From an uncultured delta proteobacterium (GTDB taxonomy: Bacteria; Myxococcota; Myxococcia; Myxococcales; Anaeromyxobacteraceae), in contig CAWFDF010000012.1 of the NCBI GenBank assembly GCA_963814585.1, forward strand, positions 320,001 to 384,000: a stretch of DNA of 64,000 bases. The letters are read 5' to 3'. The position numbers and the translations under genes are program-made. The notes under the pieces were generated by a model. The model saw only the letters and a program-made list of their open reading frames with translations, was not told where the DNA came from and searched no databases. The first letter of the stretch is position 1, and every line of letters starts with the position of its first letter. Shown here piece by piece: positions 44,181 through 61,309 of this stretch.

Positions 44181-45333
44181 TCAGGTGTTCTTAACGCGCC
44201 GCTCGGCCTCGCGCCGGCCCCAGTCGCTCGCCGCCAGCGCCTGGTCCACCGAGCCCAGCCGCTCGACGGCGTGCGCCTCCAGCACCTCGGCGCAGAGCCG
44301 CGCGATGTCGGTGAAGCGGCAGCGCCTGGTCAGGAAGGCCGCCACCGCCGCCTCGTCGGCGCCGGAGAGGACGGCCGGGGCGGTCCCGCCCAGCTCCAGG
44401 GCCCGGTAGGCGAGCCGGTAGGCCGGGAAGCGGACCGGATCGGGTGCCTCGAAGGAGAGCTGCCCCAGCCGGGCCAGGTCCAGCGGCGGCAGGTCGAGCG
44501 GCAGCCGGTCCGGGTGGCCCAGGGCGTAGCTGATGGGGCCGCGCATGTCGGAGATGCCCAGCTGGGCCACCACCGAGCCGTCGATGTACTCCACCATCGA
44601 GTGCACGATCGACTCCGGGTGGACGACGATGTCGATGCGGGCCGGCGTCGACGTCGAAGAGCCAGCGGGCCTCGATCACCTCCAGCCCCTTGTTCATCAG
44701 CGTCGCCGAGTCGACGGTGATCTTGTCGCCCATCGACCAGGTGGGGTGCTTGAGCGCCTGCTCCGGCGTCACCCCCGGCAGCTCGCCGGCCGCCACCCCG
44801 CGCAGCGGGCCGCCCGAGGCGGTGAGGAGGAGCCGGCGCACCTCGCCGTGGTTGTGCCCCAGCAGCGCCTGGTGGATGGCGGAGTGCTCGCTGTCGACCG
44901 GCAGGATGGCGCCGCCCCGCTCGGCGGCGAGGCGCATGACCAGCTCGCCGGCCAGCACCAGCGACTCCTTGTTGGCCAGCCCCACGTCCTTGCCGGCCTC
45001 GACCGCGGCGGCGGTGGAGCGCAGCCCGGCGCCCCCCGAGATGGCGGCCAGCACGAAGTCGACCTCGGGGTGGGTCGCCGCGGCCACCACGCCGTCGTCG
45101 CCGGCCCGCACCTCGATGCCCGGCGGGAGCAGGGTCCGGAGCGCCGCGGCGGCGGCCGGGTCGGCGGCGGCCACCAGCCTGGGGCGGAGGCGCAGCGCCT
45201 GCTCGGCCAGGCGCTCGACGTTGCGGCCGGCCGCCAGCGCCACCACCCGGAAGCGCTCCGGGAAGCGTGCCACCACGTCGAGCGCCTGCACGCCGACGGA
45301 GCCGGTGGAGCCGAGGATGGCGAGTCGGCGCAT
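44181..45333 (-). CDS. dxr: 1-deoxy-D-xylulose 5-phosphate reductoisomerase (apparent 1-nt insertion near 44639-44645)
   Basis: LGSTGSVG, LANKESLV, PVDSEH, TASGGP, MGDKITVDSATLMNKGLEVIEA; second frame HSMVEY..DMRGPI. Confidence 0.93.
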
Positions 45334-45367
45334 CGGGCCGGACCCTAGCACGCGGGCCGGGCGCGGC

Positions 45368-48105: not shown

Positions 48106-48882
48106 GTGGACCTCCTGCTCTCCACCCTCTCCGGGCTGGCGGCGGGCCTCCTCTCCGGCGTCTTCGGCATCGGCGGCGGCGTGGTGCTGGTGCCCATGCT
48201 GGGGCTGGTGCTGGGGCTCGGGCAGCACGACGCCCAGGGGATGACGCTGGCCATCCTGCTGCTGCCGGTGGGGCTGGCCGCGGTGATCGAGTACCACCGG
48301 GCCGGCTACGTCCGCTGGCGGTTGGTGGCGCCGCTGGTGGCCGGCTTCCTGGGCGGGGTCTGGCTCGGCGCCGCGGCGGCGACGGCGGTGGCCGAGCGCC
48401 CGCTGCGGCTCGGCTTCGTGGCCTTCCTGGTGGCGCTGGCGGTGCGCAACTGGAGGTCGGCGGGGAGGGCGCGCGGGGCGGGTGGCGCGGTGGCGGAGCC
48501 GGCGGCGGCGGGCCGGATCCTGGCCCACGCCCTCTGGATCGGCGCGGCCGGCGGCCTGGCCTCCGGGCTGCTCGGGATCGGCGGCGCGGTGGTGATGATT
48601 CCGCTGCTGGTGGCGGCGCTCGGCCTCCGCCAGCACGAGGCGCAGGGGACCAGCCTGGCGGTGATGCTGCCGCCCGTCGGCCTGCCCGGGGTGCTGGTCT
48701 ACGCCAGGGCCCAGGGCGGCCTGCCGTGGCTGGTGATCGGCTGCGTGGCGGCCGGCTTCCTGATCGGGGGCGCGCTGGGCGCCCGGGTGGCGCGGCGGGT
48801 GGCGGGCCCGGCGCTGGTGCGTGGCTTCGCCGTCTTCCAGCTCACCGTGGCGGCGGCGCTGCTGGCCCGGGCGCTCGGGTAG
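48106..48882 (+). CDS. TauE/SafE (TSUP) family membrane transporter
   Basis: Two repeats of SG..GIGG..V.P and AQG.(T/S)LA; highly hydrophobic. Confidence 0.9.
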   Translation: MDLLLSTLSGLAAGLLSGVFGIGGGVVLVPMLGLVLGLGQHDAQGMTLAILLLPVGLAAVIEYHRAGYVRWRLVAPLVAGFLGGVWLGAAAATAVAERPLRLGFVAFLVALAVRNWRSAGRARGAGGAVAEPAAAGRILAHALWIGAAGGLASGLLGIGGAVVMIPLLVAALGLRQHEAQGTSLAVMLPPVGLPGVLVYARAQGGLPWLVIGCVAAGFLIGGALGARVARRVAGPALVRGFAVFQLTVAAALLARALG

Positions 48883-51268
48883 GCGACATGCCCGCCGACC
48901 CCTCCGGCACCAGCCAGACGCGGAGCAGGGCATTCCAGTGGGCCTCGGTGAGCTGGTCGTTGGGCGTGACCCAGAGGTCGCGCGCGCCCCCCTCCAGCGC
49001 CGCCGCCAGGGTGGCGGCCAGCTCGTCGGACCCCATCGTCGTCCCGCCCGGCCCCCAGAGCCCCACCGACATGCTCCAGCGGCCGGCCGGGAGCGTGGCC
49101 GCCAGGCGCCGGGCCAGGTCGCCCGACGCCGCGACGGGCAGACCCTCCAGGGCGCGGTAGTTCCAGACCACCAGCCGGTCGGCGTGGCGCAGCAGGCGCG
49201 CGTAGTCGTGGCCGTGGTCGCGGCCGTCGCGTGCCAGGTCCTTCCAGCTGGCGGCCACGTCGACCCAGAGCTGCTTGCCGTGCCGGTGGGCGGCCTCGGC
49301 GCACCGCTGGACGAACCGCTCCATCAGCGCCGACTTCCACGCCCAGACCTCCGGGGACTCGACGTCGGGGCGGCCCCGCCCGTCACGGGGCCAGTCGGCC
49401 CTGCCGCTGGTGGCCCGGAAGGAGGCCAGGTCGGCCGGGCCGAACGAGGTCTGCCGGTAGGCCGCCTCGGTGAGGTCGATGGCGTCGACGGCCTGGGTCC
49501 TGGCGATCTCCTCGACCATCTGGACCACCAGCCCGCCGAACTCGCCGTCCGCCAGCTCGGCCAGGCCCACCTGCTCGGGGTGGGCCGTCCCGTCGGCCAG
49601 GATCGCGGCCGAACCCGGGTGGGTGGCGATCCAGGTGGGCGCGTAGAGATCGACGAAGGCGGCCACCTGGAAGCCGCGGGCGCGGAACTCCGCCGCGGCG
49701 GTGGCCAGCAGGTCCTCGGGCGAGCCCTTCTGGTGGTTCGACCAGCGCGCCTCCTGGCCCATCCAGCGGAAGTAGGCCCAGTCGGTGCGGCCGGCCTCCA
49801 CGCCGATCACCTGGCCGACGCCGACCAGCCACCGGTCCGTCACCCGGCGGATGGCGTCGTGCCAGTCGCCGTACGGGTTGAAGTGGGTGGAGAGCCCGAG
49901 CGCGAAGGCCGGCCGTGCCGCGCGGTCCCCGGCCCCGGGCACGGGGGCCATCACCACGACCGGAGCCGGGGCCGGGGCCGGCCGCAGCAGGAGCGCCACG
50001 CCCGCCACCGTGGCCACCAGGACCACCCACGCCACCACCGTGCCCCAGGGGCGACGCCCGGCCGCGGCCGCGCCCTCCAGGCGCCCCAGCTTCTCCCACT
50101 TCTCCTCGGCTCGGTTCATCTCTTTCCACCATGAGTACAGGACGACGGCGTTGAGGAAGTACGACACCGGCAGGATGAGGAGGCCAAACGGGAGGTAGGC
50201 GAGATCGCGCCACTCCCGGTCGAGCAGGATGCCGTAGACCGCCACCGCGAAGAAGAAGAAGAGCCCGAGCCAGGCCGCCAGCTCCCAGGGGCCCCGGAGC
50301 GCGATCCAGCCACGGGACAGCGCCAGCGGCAGCGCCAGGAGCAGCCCGGTCTGCAGGAGCGGCACCAGCGCCATGTTGGCGAAGTTGACCGGCAGGTAGA
50401 GCGAGAAGGGCCAGGCGTCGCGGGCGAGGAAGCGCCCGCGGTAGCGCCGGGCGATCTTGAGGTAGCTGCGCACCCAGCGGACGCGCTGGCGCCAGAGCCC
50501 GTCGAAGGTGGCCGGGCAGTCGGCCAGCACCATGGGCTCCGGATCGAAGACGATCCGCTTGCCGGCCAGCTGCAGCCGCCAGGTGAGCTCCAGGTCCTCG
50601 CCCCAGATCGGCTCGAAGCCGCCCACCTCGTCGAGCACGCGCCGGCGGATGGCGCCGAGGTTCCCGGAGATGATGGGCAGGCAGCCGATCACCGACAGGG
50701 CCCGGCGGACGTAGCCGGTGCCGATGTGGGTGGTGATCACCAGCAGCTTCTGCAGGGCGGTGGCGGCCCGGAGCGGCGCGTCGTTGCCGCAGACGGCGTC
50801 GATGGACGGATCGGCGAACCAGCGGACCAGCTGGGCCAGGGTGTCGCGGAGGAAGAGGCTGTCGGCGTCGGTGTAGACCACCACCTCGCCGGTGGCGGCG
50901 GCGATGCCGGCGTTGAGGGCCCGCGCCTTGCCGGCGTTGGCCTGCCGGACCAGCCGGATGCGGCCGGCGTCGGCCAGCCCCTGCACCCGATCGGCGGTGC
51001 CGTCGCGCGAGCCGTCGTCGACCACCACGACCTCGAGGTCGTGCCAGGCCGACTCCAGCAGGGTCTCGACGCTGGCCCGGATGGTGCGCGCCTCGTTGTA
51101 GGCGGGCACCACCACGGTCACCCGCCCCGTGAACGGCGGCAGGCGGCGCAGGGCCCGACGCTTCCACCACTCATAGGCGAGCGTGAGCGGGAAGTAGATC
51201 GCCCCCTGGAGTCCGAGGACGAAGACCGTCAGGCCGAAGGCCCAGAAGAGGGCGTGCAGGGCGCTCAT
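48842..51268 (-). CDS. Processive GT2 glycosyltransferase (PgaC/IcaA-like) fused to a C-terminal glycoside-hydrolase-like domain
   Basis: VPAYNE, DDGSRD, NAGKA, TDAD, GED, QRVRW; TM helices; PAPAP linker; about 320-aa barrel-like domain (DAIDLTE, GHDYARLLRHADRLVVWNY). Confidence 0.85.
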   Translation of the reverse strand: MSALHALFWAFGLTVFVLGLQGAIYFPLTLAYEWWKRRALRRLPPFTGRVTVVVPAYNEARTIRASVETLLESAWHDLEVVVVDDGSRDGTADRVQGLADAGRIRLVRQANAGKARALNAGIAAATGEVVVYTDADSLFLRDTLAQLVRWFADPSIDAVCGNDAPLRAATALQKLLVITTHIGTGYVRRALSVIGCLPIISGNLGAIRRRVLDEVGGFEPIWGEDLELTWRLQLAGKRIVFDPEPMVLADCPATFDGLWRQRVRWVRSYLKIARRYRGRFLARDAWPFSLYLPVNFANMALVPLLQTGLLLALPLALSRGWIALRGPWELAAWLGLFFFFAVAVYGILLDREWRDLAYLPFGLLILPVSYFLNAVVLYSWWKEMNRAEEKWEKLGRLEGAAAAGRRPWGTVVAWVVLVATVAGVALLLRPAPAPAPVVVMAPVPGAGDRAARPAFALGLSTHFNPYGDWHDAIRRVTDRWLVGVGQVIGVEAGRTDWAYFRWMGQEARWSNHQKGSPEDLLATAAAEFRARGFQVAAFVDLYAPTWIATHPGSAAILADGTAHPEQVGLAELADGEFGGLVVQMVEEIARTQAVDAIDLTEAAYRQTSFGPADLASFRATSGRADWPRDGRGRPDVESPEVWAWKSALMERFVQRCAEAAHRHGKQLWVDVAASWKDLARDGRDHGHDYARLLRHADRLVVWNYRALEGLPVAASGDLARRLAATLPAGRWSMSVGLWGPGGTTMGSDELAATLAAALEGGARDLWVTPNDQLTEAHWNALLRVWLVPEGSAGMSPTRAPGPAAPPPR

Positions 51269-51272
51269 CGGG

Positions 51273-53096
51273 TCAGCGCACCAGCACCAGCGAGCGGAAG
51301 GCCAGCGCGTACCGGGCCCCGACCTGGAGGCCGCGGTGGGCGGCCCGTCCCCGGATCACCTGCGGATCCATGTAGGGCCGGTGGGCCTGGGTCGCATGCA
51401 GGGCGCAGGCCCGCAGGTGGTCGTCGAGGTAGTGGCTGATGTCCACGAACAGGTTGGGCTGGAACCGCTCGGTGGTCGAGACGTCCTCGTAGCAGAGCAC
51501 CGTGGGCACGCCGCGCGCCGCCTCGCGGGTGGCGGCGTGGACGGCCCGGTGGTCGCCGTGGACGTCGGCGTCGCTGTGGGTCAGCACGACGGTGGGCCGC
51601 AGCTCCTTCACCCGGACCTCGATGGCCGCCTTCACCTCCCCCACCCGATCCTGGAGGCCGCTGTCGGGCAGGTCGAGCACCTCGTGGCCGTCGAGCCCGA
51701 GGAAGCGGGCGGCGCGGGCGCTCTCCTCCGGCCGGGCCTCGGGCCGGTCGGTGCCGCGCTCGCCCCGGGTCAAGGTGAGGCCGTGGACCTGCGCGCCGCT
51801 GGCCTTGAGCTTGAGGATGAAGCCGGCGCAGCCGAGCTCGATGTCGTCGGGGTGGGCGCCCACCATCAGCACCACCTGTCCGGCGAACTCCGGCTCGGTC
51901 GGCTCGCGCCGCAGCACCGCCAGCAGCGCCGTGGCCAGGCCGGCGATGATCAGCACCTCGGTGCCCGCCTCGATGATGCGGGGATCCGTCCAGCTCGTAA
52001 GCCACGGCTGGAACACGAAGGTGGCCACGTTCAGGACCAGGGCGACCGGCACCACCCAGACCGCCATCAGGCGCGCCCAGGGGCGGCGGCGGAGGCCGTG
52101 GCGGACCCGCCCCGAGACCAGCACCAGGAGCGGCAGCAGGGCCACGTGCACCAGGAGCTCGGCCCACTCGGAGGTGCTGCGGAGCGGCGCCAGCGCCCCC
52201 TCGCGGTCGAGCGCCGCGGTGAGCTGGATGGCCCCCTCGTCGCTCGGGCTCATCCGCAGGGCCAGCACGGCGTGCTCGCGGGCCGGGATGAGCCGGCCCT
52301 GCGCCAGGTAGCTCCGCCCCAGCGCCACCTGGGCCGAGGCCGACTCGGGGTCGAGCTGGGTCACGACCGACCAGGCGGCGATGGCCGCGGGCCAGTCCCT
52401 GCGGCGCTCCTGGGTCTCGGCCAGCAGGCGCCGGGCCTCGAGATCGGCCGGGGCGATCGCCACCGCCGCCTGCGCCGCCCCGAGGGCCTCGTCGAGCCTC
52501 CCCTGCTGGGAGAGGAGCCGGGCCTGGTCCCGGTGGAGATCGGCGTCCCGGGGGTAGAGCCGCAGCGCCCGCTCCAGCACCGGGGCGGCCCCGGCGGCGT
52601 CACCCCGGAGCAGCCGGGTGCGGGCCATGCCCTTGAGCGCCTCGTGGTAATCCGGGTGCCTGGCCAGGACGTCCTCGTAGAGCCGCTCCGCCTCGTCGAG
52701 CCGCTTGGCCCAGGAGAGCGCGTCGGCCAGGTCGCTCTGCAGCGCCGCGTCGTCGGGGCGCCGCGCGATGGCCTCGCGGTAGCGGACGATGGCCTCGTCG
52801 TAGCGGCCGGCCCAGGCCAGGAGCTGTCCGAGGTGGCCGAGCGCGTCGGCGTCGCGCGGGGCGATGGCGAGGAGCTGCTGGTAGGAGCGGATGGCGTCGT
52901 CGAAGCGGTGCTCCTTGGTGTGGGCGCGGCCCTGGCGGCGCAGCTCCTCGATCCCGGCCGCCGTGCTCCCGGACTCCGCCGGCGGGAAGGGGGGCGGCGG
53001 CCCGTCACCGGGGGCGCCGCGCTGGGCCAGGGCGATCGGCGAGCCACCGGCGACGAGCAGGGCCACCAGGGCCGCGGGCGGGAGAGGGAGCTTCAC
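51273..53096 (-). CDS. TPR + 3 TM + PIG-L family de-N-acetylase
   Basis: Signal peptide from GTG at 53096, about 7 TPRs, three hydrophobic helices, AHPDDIE, TRGERG, R.EES, HGDH, HATQ. Confidence 0.87.
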   Translation of the reverse strand: MKLPLPPAALVALLVAGGSPIALAQRGAPGDGPPPPFPPAESGSTAAGIEELRRQGRAHTKEHRFDDAIRSYQQLLAIAPRDADALGHLGQLLAWAGRYDEAIVRYREAIARRPDDAALQSDLADALSWAKRLDEAERLYEDVLARHPDYHEALKGMARTRLLRGDAAGAAPVLERALRLYPRDADLHRDQARLLSQQGRLDEALGAAQAAVAIAPADLEARRLLAETQERRRDWPAAIAAWSVVTQLDPESASAQVALGRSYLAQGRLIPAREHAVLALRMSPSDEGAIQLTAALDREGALAPLRSTSEWAELLVHVALLPLLVLVSGRVRHGLRRRPWARLMAVWVVPVALVLNVATFVFQPWLTSWTDPRIIEAGTEVLIIAGLATALLAVLRREPTEPEFAGQVVLMVGAHPDDIELGCAGFILKLKASGAQVHGLTLTRGERGTDRPEARPEESARAARFLGLDGHEVLDLPDSGLQDRVGEVKAAIEVRVKELRPTVVLTHSDADVHGDHRAVHAATREAARGVPTVLCYEDVSTTERFQPNLFVDISHYLDDHLRACALHATQAHRPYMDPQVIRGRAAHRGLQVGARYALAFRSLVLVR

Positions 53097-53109
53097 GACG
53101 AGGTGACTC

Positions 53110-54399
53110 TTACAGCACCCCGGTTCGCCACTCCACGTCGAGCAGCAGCGTGGCGTCGCTGCGTGGACCGGCGGTGGGGCTGGTGCTCTCCGGGCCCGGG
53201 TTGGCCACGTACTTGAAGCCGCCTCCCAGCGCCAGTGCGGGCGTGATCCCGTAGCGGGCCCGGGCCCAGAAGACGTTGCCGTCCTTGCCGGCGAAGGTGG
53301 GACCGGAGGCGCTGGAGTAGCGATCGAAGATCCACTGGAGGTCGAGGGCGAGCCGCTCCTGCGGCCGGAGCTCCAGCGCCGAGAGGACCGACCAGGCATA
53401 GCTGGCGTCGAGGTCGCGGTTGGGGATGACGCGGACGCTGGCGGTGAGCAGGTCCGACTCCCAGGCCACACCGCCGCCCACCAGCAGCTCGCGGCGCATG
53501 ACGACGTCGGTGGCGGCGGCACAGTCCGGCGACGGGGCCCCGGGCGTGCAGACGGTGCCGGCCGGGGCCCCGGGCAGCGGCCGGCCCTTGATGGCGGTCT
53601 GGTCGGGATCCGGGTCGAAGAGCACGGCGGCCACGGCGGAGATCGCGAAGCCGTGGCCGAGCAGGACCTCGACGTCGGCGGTGGCCTTGTGGTTCACCAC
53701 GTAGGTCTGCGGATCGTAGAAGAAGTTGGGCGTGAAGAGCTGGTACGCCAGCCCGGCCCGGACCGTCCTGCCGAAGCGGTGGGAGACCTCGACCTCGATG
53801 CGCGGGACCAGGTCGTAGGCGTTCGAGTCGGGCGTGGGCCGATCGGCGCCGGAGTAGGCGTAGCGGCGCAGCGAGAGGTCGCCCTTCAGGTAGGAGCCGG
53901 GGGCGTGGAAGAAGTAGGCGGTCGCGTAGCCCTTGGCGGACTCGTAGAAGATGCTGTCGGACCACCCGGCGCCGGCCTGCAGCTCGAGGCGATCGAGGCC
54001 GGCGTAGCGGAGCTGTCCCTCCACCGCCTGCTTGGAGGTGCCGGGCTCGGTGCCGCCCAGCCAGGCCCGGACCGCCAGCCCGCGCGAGCGCTCCAGCGCG
54101 GCCAGGTCGTCCCGCGCCTCCCGGTCGGCGGGGTCGATCGCGATCGCCTGGCGGAGGGCCTCGGCGGCCTCGGGCGTCCGGTGCAGCCCCCGGAGCGACC
54201 AGCCGATCCGCTTCCAGGTCTCGGCGCTCGGGCCGCCCGCCGCCAGCTCGGCCTGGTACTCGGCCAGCGCCGCCTGGTACCGTCCCTCGGCGCGCCGCCG
54301 ATCGCCCTCGGCCTGATGGGCCTGCGCGGCGGCGGGATCGGCCGCTGCGGCGGGGCCGGCGAAGTGCAGCAGGACCGTCAGGGGCAGGATCAGGCGCAT
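53110..54399 (-). CDS. TPR + outer-membrane beta-barrel protein (PgaA/YaiO-like porin)
   Basis: Signal peptide, 2-3 TPRs, then aromatic-rich alternating strands to the C-terminus. Confidence 0.75.
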   Translation of the reverse strand: MRLILPLTVLLHFAGPAAAADPAAAQAHQAEGDRRRAEGRYQAALAEYQAELAAGGPSAETWKRIGWSLRGLHRTPEAAEALRQAIAIDPADREARDDLAALERSRGLAVRAWLGGTEPGTSKQAVEGQLRYAGLDRLELQAGAGWSDSIFYESAKGYATAYFFHAPGSYLKGDLSLRRYAYSGADRPTPDSNAYDLVPRIEVEVSHRFGRTVRAGLAYQLFTPNFFYDPQTYVVNHKATADVEVLLGHGFAISAVAAVLFDPDPDQTAIKGRPLPGAPAGTVCTPGAPSPDCAAATDVVMRRELLVGGGVAWESDLLTASVRVIPNRDLDASYAWSVLSALELRPQERLALDLQWIFDRYSSASGPTFAGKDGNVFWARARYGITPALALGGGFKYVANPGPESTSPTAGPRSDATLLLDVEWRTGVL

Positions 54400-55262
54400 C
54401 GTCCGTTCCTCCAGGCGTCATCGAGGGCGTCGAGCACCTCGCGCGCGGTGAGCACGTTGGCGCCGAGCCGGGCGTTGAGCTCCAGCACCGCCGGCCTTCC
54501 GTCGAGGCCGACCCGGACGTCGGCGTCGAGCGGCCCCTCGAGCCGGAGCACCCGGGCGGCCGCGACCGCGAGGGCGGCCAGGTCGGGGCGATGGACGCGC
54601 TCGACCCCGGTGGCGTTGCCCACCTCCCCGTCCTTCAGGCCGGTCTTGCGGAGCACCACCGCCGCCGGAACGCAGCCGTCGCGCTCGAGGAACAGGTTCA
54701 CGTCGAACTCCTCGCCGGGGAGGAAGGCCTGCCAGACCACCTCCTCGGCGCCGATCCGCGCCAGATCGGCGAGCGTCCGGTGGACCAGCACGCCGCGCCC
54801 GCCGCGCCCGAAGCGCGGCTTGGAGAGCAGCGGGAGGGCGAGCTGCCGGGCGGCCTCGACGCCGGTCATGGTCCCCGGGAAGGTGGCCGGGGCCGCCACG
54901 CCCGCCCGGGCCAGGGCCTGGGCCGTGAGCAGCTTGTCGTTGGCGACGTCGATCCCGGCCGGCTCCGAGACCGCGGCCGCGATGCCGCGCTCGCGCAGCA
55001 CCGGGCGGATCCGGGAGACGACCGGCAGCTCCTCGGTCACGGTGGGCACCACCAGCGACGCCCGCCCGGCCACGGCCAGGTCGACGAGCGCCGAGGGGTA
55101 GGCCGGATCGCGGGCCATGGGCACCAGCCGGAACTCGGTCGCCGCCGACGCCACCTCGCGCACGTCGGTCCCGATCACCCGGTAGCCGCGCTCCACGAAG
55201 TAGGCCGCACCGGCCCGGCCCGCCGGGCCGCCCACGCCCGTCACCAGCACGGTTGCATTCAC
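54390..55262 (-). CDS. ATP-grasp ligase (PylC/carbamoyl-phosphate-synthase-like N-terminus)
   Basis: LVTGVGGPAG, VPTVTEEL, NDKL, KPRFGRGGRG, QAFLPGEEF, LELNAR. Confidence 0.88.
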   Translation of the reverse strand: MNATVLVTGVGGPAGRAGAAYFVERGYRVIGTDVREVASAATEFRLVPMARDPAYPSALVDLAVAGRASLVVPTVTEELPVVSRIRPVLRERGIAAAVSEPAGIDVANDKLLTAQALARAGVAAPATFPGTMTGVEAARQLALPLLSKPRFGRGGRGVLVHRTLADLARIGAEEVVWQAFLPGEEFDVNLFLERDGCVPAAVVLRKTGLKDGEVGNATGVERVHRPDLAALAVAAARVLRLEGPLDADVRVGLDGRPAVLELNARLGANVLTAREVLDALDDAWRNGRCA

Positions 55263-55469
55263 CTGAAGTGTTCCTCCCAGGTGCTTCTTGACTCACGACA
55301 AGGGCCGCTGACAACCCGGATTTCCGCCGACCGCGCCTCCGCAAGGATCAAGCCCTTGACACGACAGGTGAATCTGGATTGTGGCAACTTGGTGACGAAC
55401 CGGACCGGGGCCCGAGTCCAGGGTGGCGAGGCGGCCTCCACCGTCACCCTCCTCCGCTACACTGCGCTC

Positions 55470-56150
55470 ATGTCGGACCTGGCTCCGGGCGACCTGTCCT
55501 ACCAGCTGGTGGTGGCCGAGTACTTCCTCGGCCTCTCCGGCAAGGGGCTGATGGTCTCGCCGCTCGACCGGGAGCTGGTCGCCGACTGGGAGCGGCGCGG
55601 CCTCCCGGTGCCGGTGGTGCTGCGCGGCCTGCAGCAGGGCTGGCAGGACTTCGAGCTGCGCCGCGCCCCCGGCGCCAGCGCGCCCCGCTCGATCCGCGCC
55701 CTGCGCTTCGCCGTCGAGGACGAGTGGCGCGCCTTCACCTCGCGCGCGGTGGGCGACGCCCCGCCGCCGCCGAACGAGTCCGGCGCCGCCGGGGCCCGGC
55801 TCGACGCGGCCCGCCGGCGGCTCGCCGAGGCCGTCGACGGCGCCCCGGCGGCCTGGCGCACCGGCTACCGCGCGGCGCTCGCCGAGCTCGACGCCACCGT
55901 CGCCGCCGGCCCGGGCGTCTCGCTGGAGCGGGTCGAGGCCGCGGTCGCCGCCGCCGACGCCCGCCTGCTCTCGGCCTGGCTGGCCTCGCTCGACCGCCCT
56001 CGCCGCGCCGCCCTCGGCCCCCGCCTCGCGCTCCGGGCCGGCCCCCGCCACCGCGGCGCCAGCCGGCGCGCCCACCGGGAGACCCTGCGCCACCACCTGC
56101 TCGAGGCCGCCCGCGCCGCCGGGCTGACCTGCCTGCGGGGAACGGTGTAG
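55470..56150 (+). CDS. Hypothetical protein with DnaD-like N-terminal motif
   Basis: C-terminal part of ORF 54591..56150 from ATG at 55470; YFLGLSGKGLMVSPLDRELVADW...VVLRGL; directly upstream of a DnaC-like ATPase. Confidence 0.65.
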   Translation: MSDLAPGDLSYQLVVAEYFLGLSGKGLMVSPLDRELVADWERRGLPVPVVLRGLQQGWQDFELRRAPGASAPRSIRALRFAVEDEWRAFTSRAVGDAPPPPNESGAAGARLDAARRRLAEAVDGAPAAWRTGYRAALAELDATVAAGPGVSLERVEAAVAAADARLLSAWLASLDRPRRAALGPRLALRAGPRHRGASRRAHRETLRHHLLEAARAAGLTCLRGTV

Positions 56151-56163
56151 AGTCCGCGCCCTG

Positions 56164-57051
56164 ATGTCCACCCCGGTCGAGAGCACCCCGTGCGCGTCCT
56201 GCGGCGGCGCCGGCTACCTGGTCGAGCAGGTCCTCGGCAAGACGGCCCGGGCTCGCCGCTGCGAGTGCCAGGCCCGCTGCACCCGCTGCAACGGCAGCGG
56301 CTTCGCGCTGGTCCCCTCGCCGTCCGGGCCGGTGGCGCAGGCCTGCTCCTGCCGGCACCTCGACGAGCGGCTGGCGCTCTTCAACCAGATCGGCATCCCC
56401 GCCGCGGTCGCCAGGGCCAGCTTCGACGGCTTCAAGGTCTGGTCGCCGGAGCACGCCGGGGCCAAGGGCATCGCCGAGGACTTCGCCCGGAAGTTCCGCC
56501 GGGACGAGCCCACCAAGGGCTTCCTCCTCTACGGCCGGCCCGGCGGCGGGAAGACCCACCTGCTGGCCTCGACGCTGCGCTGGCTGGCCCTGGAGAAGGG
56601 CGTGGCCAGCCGCTACGTCGAGTTCATGCTGCTGCTCTCGGACATGAAGGACGGCTTCGGCGCGGGGCGGAGCCACATGGAGATCCTGCGGCCGCTCCTC
56701 TCGGTCCCGGTGCTGGCCATCGACGAGCTGGGCAAGGAGCGCGGCACGCCCTGGGAGCAGTCGATGCTCGACGAGCTGATCAGCCGCCGCTTCAACAGCG
56801 GCCTCTCCACGCTCTTCGCCACCAACTACTTCGTCGAGCCGCGCGCCGCGCCCCCGGATCCCGCCCGCCGGGCCGATCCGCGCTCCCCGGAGTTCCGGCA
56901 GGAGGCCGAGTCCATGACCCTGGCGCAGCGGGTCGGCGACCGGATCTACTCCCGGCTGAGCGAGATGTGCACCTTCGCCAAGCTCGATCCGGGCATGGAC
57001 GTCCGCAAGGACGTGCACGGCGCCGGGGCCGGGGGCTTCTGGCGCCGCTGA
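56164..57051 (+). CDS. DnaC/DnaI/IstB-like AAA+ ATPase with N-terminal Cys clusters
   Basis: CASC..CEC, CTRC..CSC; GRPGGGKTHL; IDELG; LISRRFN; FATNY; RIYSRL. Confidence 0.88.
   Translation: MSTPVESTPCASCGGAGYLVEQVLGKTARARRCECQARCTRCNGSGFALVPSPSGPVAQACSCRHLDERLALFNQIGIPAAVARASFDGFKVWSPEHAGAKGIAEDFARKFRRDEPTKGFLLYGRPGGGKTHLLASTLRWLALEKGVASRYVEFMLLLSDMKDGFGAGRSHMEILRPLLSVPVLAIDELGKERGTPWEQSMLDELISRRFNSGLSTLFATNYFVEPRAAPPDPARRADPRSPEFRQEAESMTLAQRVGDRIYSRLSEMCTFAKLDPGMDVRKDVHGAGAGGFWRR

Positions 57052-59331: not shown

Positions 59332-61309
<1,978 letters not shown>

Follow-up and report, generated by a model that had tools for sequence, protein, structure and literature searches.

The locus described here raises the question of what an ATP-grasp ligase is doing in an operon whose other products look like an exopolysaccharide system. 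Four minus-strand open reading frames lie at positions 48842-55262 of the window, by which we mean the whole 64,000-nucleotide stretch analysed, from an uncultured member of the Anaeromyxobacteraceae. They encode an ATP-grasp protein, a tetratricopeptide repeat (TPR)/beta-barrel protein, a TPR protein carrying a PIG-L deacetylase domain, and a family 2 glycosyltransferase (GT2). When coordinates and spacing were re-derived from the window sequence, the tight packing reported in an initial annotation (a 10-bp overlap, a 13-bp gap and a 4-bp gap) was recovered. The balance tips, if narrowly, towards a synthase-dependent polysaccharide machine that is self-contained and modifies its sugar precursor in the cytoplasm. 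There, the membrane-anchored PIG-L enzyme would deacetylate a UDP-N-acetylhexosamine, in all likelihood UDP-N-acetylglucosamine (UDP-GlcNAc), and the ATP-grasp enzyme would ligate a common cellular carboxylic acid onto the freed amine. The GT2 would then link this N-acyl sugar into a polymer across the inner membrane, a hydrolase fused to the GT2 would trim the polymer, and the TPR/barrel proteins would export it.

More tentatively, and short of even chances, the operon may represent a family of secreted polysaccharides not described before, whose building block is a non-standard N-acyl hexosamine. The UDP-sugar would be stripped and then re-acylated by a free acid at the expense of ATP; the three core enzymes would have travelled together into many bacterial phyla and methanogenic archaea, and the anchor of the deacetylase would double as the missing channel partner of the synthase. 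Targeted literature searches, whose coverage excluded the bulk of the subscription literature (Iyer et al. 2009 among it), returned no description of such a polymer or system.

The four proteins and their predicted places

The ATP-grasp gene (54390-55262, minus strand; 290 aa) has a GTG start preceded by GGAGG at 55277-55273. Its product matches ATP-grasp_3 in the Pfam/NCBIfam scan (E 7e-12) and a PRK12767-like model with a score below cut-off (E 5e-34), and its best PDB profile match is 2PN1 (E 1e-27); profile scans place it in the PRK12767/PylC-like class of ATP-grasp enzymes. The ATP-binding residues are retained, and T8GxGGPxG15, T74VxEE78, K110, R153GGR156, K206, D246xDxR250, N263 and R265 are invariant among homologues. 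With neither signal peptide nor transmembrane helix, the protein is predicted to be cytoplasmic.

The deacetylase gene (51273-53096, minus strand) is separated by 13 bp from the TPR/barrel gene. GTG 53096 is its most likely start codon and yields a protein of 607 aa with a signal peptide, homologues having 606 to 611 aa. Profile scans and topology prediction divide the protein into a signal peptide with a periplasmic TPR array (52227-53096), a three-helix membrane anchor with an Arg-rich first loop (residues 311-395; 51912-52166) and a PIG-L/LmbE N-deacetylase domain (51273-51875). This last domain matches PF02585 above cut-off (E 1e-28); its metal-binding and catalytic motifs, H415-P-D-D418 and H513-x-D-H516, are intact and invariant in 37 of 37 aligned homologues. 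Since a signal peptide is followed by three transmembrane helices with an Arg-rich first loop, the catalytic domain is predicted to face the cytoplasm, which would point to editing of the precursor rather than of the polymer. The initial annotation had the domain right, and did not note this predicted position. Among 60 PIG-L homologues, three transmembrane helices were predicted in 48 and two in eight; one homologue has four, and four that are truncated, split or divergent have none or one. The anchor is retained even in TPR-less and archaeal versions, and is a candidate PgaD-like partner of the GT2, a putative stand-in for PgaD itself.

The GT2 gene (48842-51268, minus strand; 808 aa) follows after 4 bp. 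Its synthase domain (50069-51268) comprises an N-terminal helix, the D-DxD-ED-QxxRW motifs, three C-terminal hydrophobic segments and a loop around W391. In an alignment of 37 homologues, the motifs D85, D134xD136, E224D225 and Q261RVRW265 do not vary, and the terminal W-x-K-x-x-R loop is conserved. The best NCBIfam model is PgaC_IcaA, matched at 162.3 bits against a cut-off of 422.3. At the site where PgaC has E-Y-S-S-I-I-G, this protein has H181-I-G-T-G, invariant as H-[IV]-G-T-G; the EY motif, found in PgaC and six other GT2s, is thus replaced in the present clade, which suggests a changed sugar-binding site and would be expected if the synthase uses an altered substrate.

The D,D,D,QxxRW synthase was already recognised in the initial annotation, which missed the hydrolase fused to it. 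A transmembrane helix (residues 410-428; 49985-50041) leads into the predicted periplasm, and behind it residues ~445-795 are predicted to form a GH153/GHL10-like (beta/alpha)8 barrel (48884-49936), whose structure model is closest to the GH153 domain of PgaB. By its fold, this would be a glycoside hydrolase of the kind found in synthase systems. None of 40 hydrolase members matched the GHL13 profile, and 17 of them matched GHL10 weakly. E601, an invariant residue where strand 4 ends, aligns with E. coli PgaB D466 (presumably the equivalent of D474 in Bordetella bronchiseptica) with an alignment probability of only 0.3%. D474 is the catalytic Asp of GH153 in B. bronchiseptica (PMC5933820).

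The TPR/barrel gene (53110-54399, minus strand; 429 aa), which overlaps the ATP-grasp gene by 10 bp, encodes a signal peptide, a short TPR region and a predicted 16-strand outer-membrane beta-barrel (53113-54099). Profile scans returned a TPR match and no named barrel family, and the YaiO and PgaA models matched none of 44 barrels of the family; the structure model is closest to PelB, PgaA and BcsC. Three general features of synthase-dependent exopolysaccharide systems are therefore present: a membrane GT2 with D,D,D,QxxRW, a TPR scaffold with a barrel, and a hydrolase fold. Pfam and NCBIfam returned the ATP-grasp, TPR, PIG-L and GT2 assignments made initially from the sequence. They also agree with the reported lack of PilZ and PgaD, as no PilZ match was obtained and the window leaves no space for a pgaD gene.

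Linkage, co-inheritance and genomic setting

Scanning GTDB genomes with a GT2 alignment yielded 69 loci, in Myxococcota, Acidobacteriota, Nitrospirota, Thermodesulfobacteriota/Deltaproteobacteria, alpha-, beta- and gammaproteobacteria, WOR-3, Aminicenantes, Chloroflexota, Methanosarcina and a few others. An ATP-grasp gene accompanies the GT2 in 58 loci, a PIG-L gene in 61 and both in 55; where ATP-grasp is missing (11 loci), the upstream sequence spans no more than 2.5 kb. When only loci with wide flanks are considered (at least 4.2 kb upstream and at least 5.5 kb downstream; n = 43), PIG-L and ATP-grasp are both present in 43 of 43, the hydrolase in 42 and the barrel in 41, the two exceptions to the last being an archaeon and a Chloroflexales bin. 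In a reciprocal scan from the ATP-grasp, limited to the best 80 of 378 metagenome loci and biased to close relatives, 67 loci show a partner gene and the other 13 have at most 624 bases downstream; GT2 and PIG-L accompany the ATP-grasp in all 33 of these best loci that have at least 4.5 kb downstream. The co-occurrence on which the initial annotation had staked its proposal is thus seen from both directions. A plasmid of Arthrobacter, found via the ATP-grasp alone, likewise carries PIG-L, ATP-grasp, GT2 and hydrolase. The conservation of the family is real and wide, the chemistry proposed.

Five gene orders and one porin-less form account for the 55 complete loci, PIG-L being encoded directly before the GT2 in 34 of them; the porin is absent from Chloroflexota, Arthrobacter and archaeal loci. 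No further gene recurs across the loci of the family, an acyltransferase and a UDP-sugar dehydrogenase included, and no small hydrophobic open reading frame recurs in the 69 loci. Across 53 loci, the trees of ATP-grasp, PIG-L and GT2 are largely congruent: of 26 well-supported ATP-grasp splits, 22 recur in the GT2 tree and 2 conflict with it. As the loci are related by kinship and are not independent, this agreement shows co-inheritance, not function. Named isolates that carry the system and are non-pathogenic include Collimonas antrihumi DSM 104040, Herminiimonas aquatilis CCUG 36956, Glaciimonas soli GS1, Sphingobium faniae and Arthrobacter sp. StoSoilB13.

Closer to the window, homologues at 83-90% identity occur in Anaeromyxobacter, Anaeromyxobacteraceae or Myxococcales, and a GT2 at 60% identity or more is found in 11 of 60 relatives. 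The initial annotation had left open whether the gene order recurs: the complete cluster stands in identical order in eight fetched relative loci, three others being cut by contig ends. In-clade ATP-grasps occur in 10 of 301 genomes of the phylum (286 bits or more, the next score being 144). A full-length GT2 is present in 5 of 12 same-genus genomes, and the operon site is empty in G002, G003 and G006, with TauE ~0.9 kb away from the operon's flanking gene in G002 and a kinase directly adjoining that gene in the other two. The operon is accessory, as had been suspected, and since its GC content at third codon positions is close to that of the host, its gain or losses would be old.

In the genus Methanosarcina, 11 of 59 genomes have an in-clade ATP-grasp, and all three enzymes are present in nine of nine fetched loci. 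Intact hydrolase genes are those of L202, L209 and L210; L083 keeps a truncated 45-aa remnant after the GT2 (L083:11173-11310). A secreted GH16-like gene lies near five of six fetched loci without an intact hydrolase and near none of the three that keep it. Three loci of the genus carry, between ATP-grasp and GT2, a 320-370 bp insertion with a 14-bp terminal inverted repeat (L083:9676-10001, L203:5268-5592, L204:6668-7031) that looks like a miniature inverted-repeat transposable element.

Other observations are local. A ~225-aa secreted protein with no Pfam match lies between hydrolase and PIG-L in L077 (12369-13043), L078, L079 (5216-5896), L081 and L084, and is limited to these five betaproteobacterial/Acidiferrobacterales loci of convergent gene order. 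The bin label of L063, titled Eubacteriales, may be wrong: the locus carries the outer-membrane-barrel version and is closest to Aminicenantes and WOR-3 copies. An orphan in-clade ATP-grasp with decayed motifs (L215:5957-7084) adjoins a MatE transporter gene.

Upstream of the operon, the divergent intergenic region of 207 bp (55263-55469) contains the ribosome-binding site and presumably the promoter; no sigma-70 site and no Rfam family were found in it. A short motif ending in GTCA, ~15-20 bases 5' of the ribosome-binding site (55285-55330), recurs in six close relatives. Beyond it, positions 55470-57051 encode a 226-aa protein with no Pfam/NCBIfam match and then a DnaC/IstB-like ATPase, possibly a replication helicase-loader pair, kept in five of five same-genus genomes tested. 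At the other end, the stop of the GT2-hydrolase gene overlaps a convergent TauE gene by 41 bases (48842-48882), and the C-terminal tail of the protein varies among relatives. Further away, dxr (44181-45351) and groEL (59651-61309) each appear split across two frames, probably through assembly frameshifts.

Proposed chemistry and its alternatives

Judging from synthase structures, a chain within the channel would be mostly shielded from cytoplasmic enzymes, so that the likely substrate of a cytoplasmic deacetylase and ligase is the donor. The neighbourhoods of more distant ATP-grasps bear on this. Of 44 outgroup matches, 16 loci were fetched and 44 hand-picked neighbouring genes scanned, the counts being lower bounds: a DegT aminotransferase was found in at least 8, PIG-L in at least 4 and either of them in at least 10, a PglC-type transferase in at least 5, and a HAD, PHP or metallo-phosphatase in at least 7. 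No sugar context was seen in L222, L224 and L230. The class thus tends to adjoin an enzyme that makes a sugar amine. An archaeal surface-glycan cluster (L211:5606-9090) has a soluble PIG-L, a distant ATP-grasp, a PHP phosphatase and a GT4, without this synthase. A sister cassette (L217:3726-7829, L218:4531-9426) combines a PIG-L to which a receiver-like domain is fused with an EY-type GT2 and an ATP-grasp of more distant kinship; in L218 a sigma-54 response regulator lies between the genes.

Deacetylation followed by acylation is the likely chemistry, in that it fits the predicted topology, these outgroup contexts and published precedent. The weakest step of the proposal is the acyl donor. As no donor-making gene or phosphatase travels with the clade, an unphosphorylated central metabolite seems likely. 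By analogy with Pyl (see below) a dicarboxylic or 2-oxo acid is our leading candidate, at appreciably less than even chances; an amino acid comes slightly behind it, and another small acid is the alternative.

Several observations weigh against this proposal. The best PDB matches of the PIG-L domain, diacetylchitobiose deacetylase (E 2e-27) and BshB-type enzymes, act on chitobiose ends and small glycosides, and a precedent for PIG-L acting on a UDP-sugar was not found in the literature searched. Hydrophobic segments in the GT2 number only four or five; the best of its long PDB alignments is with 6YV7, which we take to be a non-processive archaeal mannosyltransferase, and a ceramide glucosyltransferase matches too. 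Pyl is a parallel by its described reaction, and its membership of the same ATP-grasp class is putative. The hydrolase gene is intact in only three of the nine Methanosarcina loci. Genome G259 has an in-clade ATP-grasp with no nearby partner genes and no in-clade GT2; this copy has lost the GGP, TVxEE and GGR motifs, which fits a decaying orphan. Finally, the contig of G370 stops at PIG-L, and that assembly of 570 contigs yielded no in-clade GT2.

The alternative that survives best keeps the same N-acyl exchange and moves it to the membrane: PIG-L and ATP-grasp would work at the synthase, on the last residue of the chain as it grows or else on a lipid-linked primer, and not on free UDP-sugar. 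PIG-L is always membrane-anchored, its gene most often directly precedes that of the GT2 (34/55), and diacetylchitobiose deacetylase, its best match, acts on a non-reducing terminal GlcNAc. However, outgroup ATP-grasps adjoin nucleotide-sugar enzymes, and it would be sterically hard for two enzymes to reach the acceptor in the synthase channel; we regard this scenario as unlikely, if the most serious competitor.

Less probable still is a non-processive GT2 producing an N-acylated glucosaminyl lipid or short oligosaccharide, by the logic of MshA/B/C (transfer GlcNAc, deacetylate, ligate). This would explain the few transmembrane helices, the 6YV7 and ceramide glucosyltransferase matches, and the persistence of the three enzymes where porin and hydrolase are absent. 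Yet the QxxRW motif and terminal loop are conserved, PgaC_IcaA is the best model, and a PgaB-like hydrolase (42/43) and a PelB/PgaA/BcsC-like porin (41/43) accompany the enzymes in the wide-flank loci.

We give marginally less credit to a third scenario, in which the product is ordinary partly deacetylated poly-N-acetylglucosamine (PNAG) or a chitosan-like chain and the ATP-grasp has a side role. PgaC is indeed the closest named synthase (31% over 228 columns), and the fold models of the hydrolase and the porin match those of PgaB and PgaA. But the GT2 score falls far below cut-off (162 vs 422), the EY motif, CE4 domain and PgaD are lacking, the ATP-grasp tree tracks that of the GT2 through rearrangements, and the orphan copy has decayed. 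Finally, activation of a uronic acid carboxylate by the ATP-grasp for amidation with an amine, with PIG-L deacetylating independently, has a precedent in capsule synthesis, the TupA-like domain of Campylobacter Cj1438 (PMC11800379, accessible part), but is very improbable in view of the lack of a TupA-type Pfam match and of any additional recurring gene such as a UDP-sugar dehydrogenase.

Comparison with known systems

The precursor-editing machine proposed here resembles PgaABCD (E. coli, Bordetella) and IcaADBC in its PgaC-like membrane GT2, GH153-like TIM barrel, and TPR protein with a 16-strand porin. In those systems, however, the deacetylase is an extracytoplasmic CE4 enzyme (the periplasmic PgaB N-terminal domain, IcaB), whereas here it is a PIG-L predicted to be cytoplasmic, none of the four proteins giving a CE4 Pfam match. 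Compared with PgaABCD, the cluster includes a gene for an ATP-grasp ligase, its hydrolase is joined to the synthase instead of the deacetylase, most TPRs are on an inner-membrane protein, PgaD is missing, and EY is replaced by H-I-G-T-G. The machine thus looks like a PNAG-type secretion system and departs from PNAG in three features: the equivalog score, the CE4 deacetylase and PgaD. The initial interpretation, an amino-sugar polymer modified by PIG-L and ATP-grasp, stands as regards linkage and the folds of the export parts; it overlooked the hydrolase and the predicted cytoplasmic PIG-L.

The E. coli yaiS-yaiP-yaiX-yaiO cluster (L099:5070-9617) also unites a PIG-L, a GT2, an acyl-transfer enzyme and an outer-membrane protein. 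YaiS is 35% identical to the PIG-L over 167 aa, and YaiP 31% to the GT2 over 227 aa. YaiS, however, has 185 aa and neither membrane anchor nor TPRs, the acyltransferase YaiX takes the place of the ATP-grasp, there is no hydrolase gene, the barrels share no similarity, and YaiP falls outside this GT2 clade. On these sequence comparisons, the cluster, with its acyltransferase, parallels the present design and is not orthologous to it. Its genes are annotated as putative, yaiX is interrupted by IS2 in K-12, and no paper titled on its function was found in the literature searched.

Two of the three best fold matches to the modelled barrel are PelB and BcsC, which likens its secretion to that of Pel and Bcs; the modification enzymes differ, and no PilZ or other cyclic di-GMP receptor domain was found in the four proteins. 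In PNAG, editing of N-acyl groups takes place on the chain, outside the cytoplasm, and the same holds for N- or O-acyl editing in Pel, alginate and cellulose. If our proposal is true, a cytoplasmic deacetylase-ligase pair feeding a synthase would be a new polymer chemistry, obtained from four genes with no dedicated precursor pathway. Soil, groundwater and methanogen communities would then have a further matrix polymer, a route to N-acyl-glucosamine polymers would open up, and a large unassigned class of ATP-grasp proteins, now annotated as 'carbamoyl phosphate synthase-like', would gain a function that can be tested.

Two systems come closest in chemistry. The original source on the synthesis of UDP-Yelosamine by Pat and Pyl of Bacillus cereus is reportedly Hwang et al. 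2014. In this pathway, which serves a surface polysaccharide, an ATP-grasp enzyme joins 2-oxoglutarate to the amine of a UDP-amino-sugar (accessible parts of PMC11257628 and PMC4595770). The ATP-grasp studied here would similarly join a central metabolite to a UDP-amino-sugar amine, a likeness by description. There, as far as those parts describe it, an aminotransferase supplies the C4 amine and the product enters a phosphoglycosyl-transferase pathway, whereas here de-N-acetylation would supply it and a synthase would follow. In the Caulobacter holdfast, the cytosolic deacetylase HfsH and the acyltransferase HfsK are proposed to act in turn on the exposed amine of exopolysaccharide precursors (PMC5362036, accessible part); in contrast to the present ligase, HfsK is a GNAT enzyme, the pathway is lipid-linked with a flippase, and acylation is only proposed.

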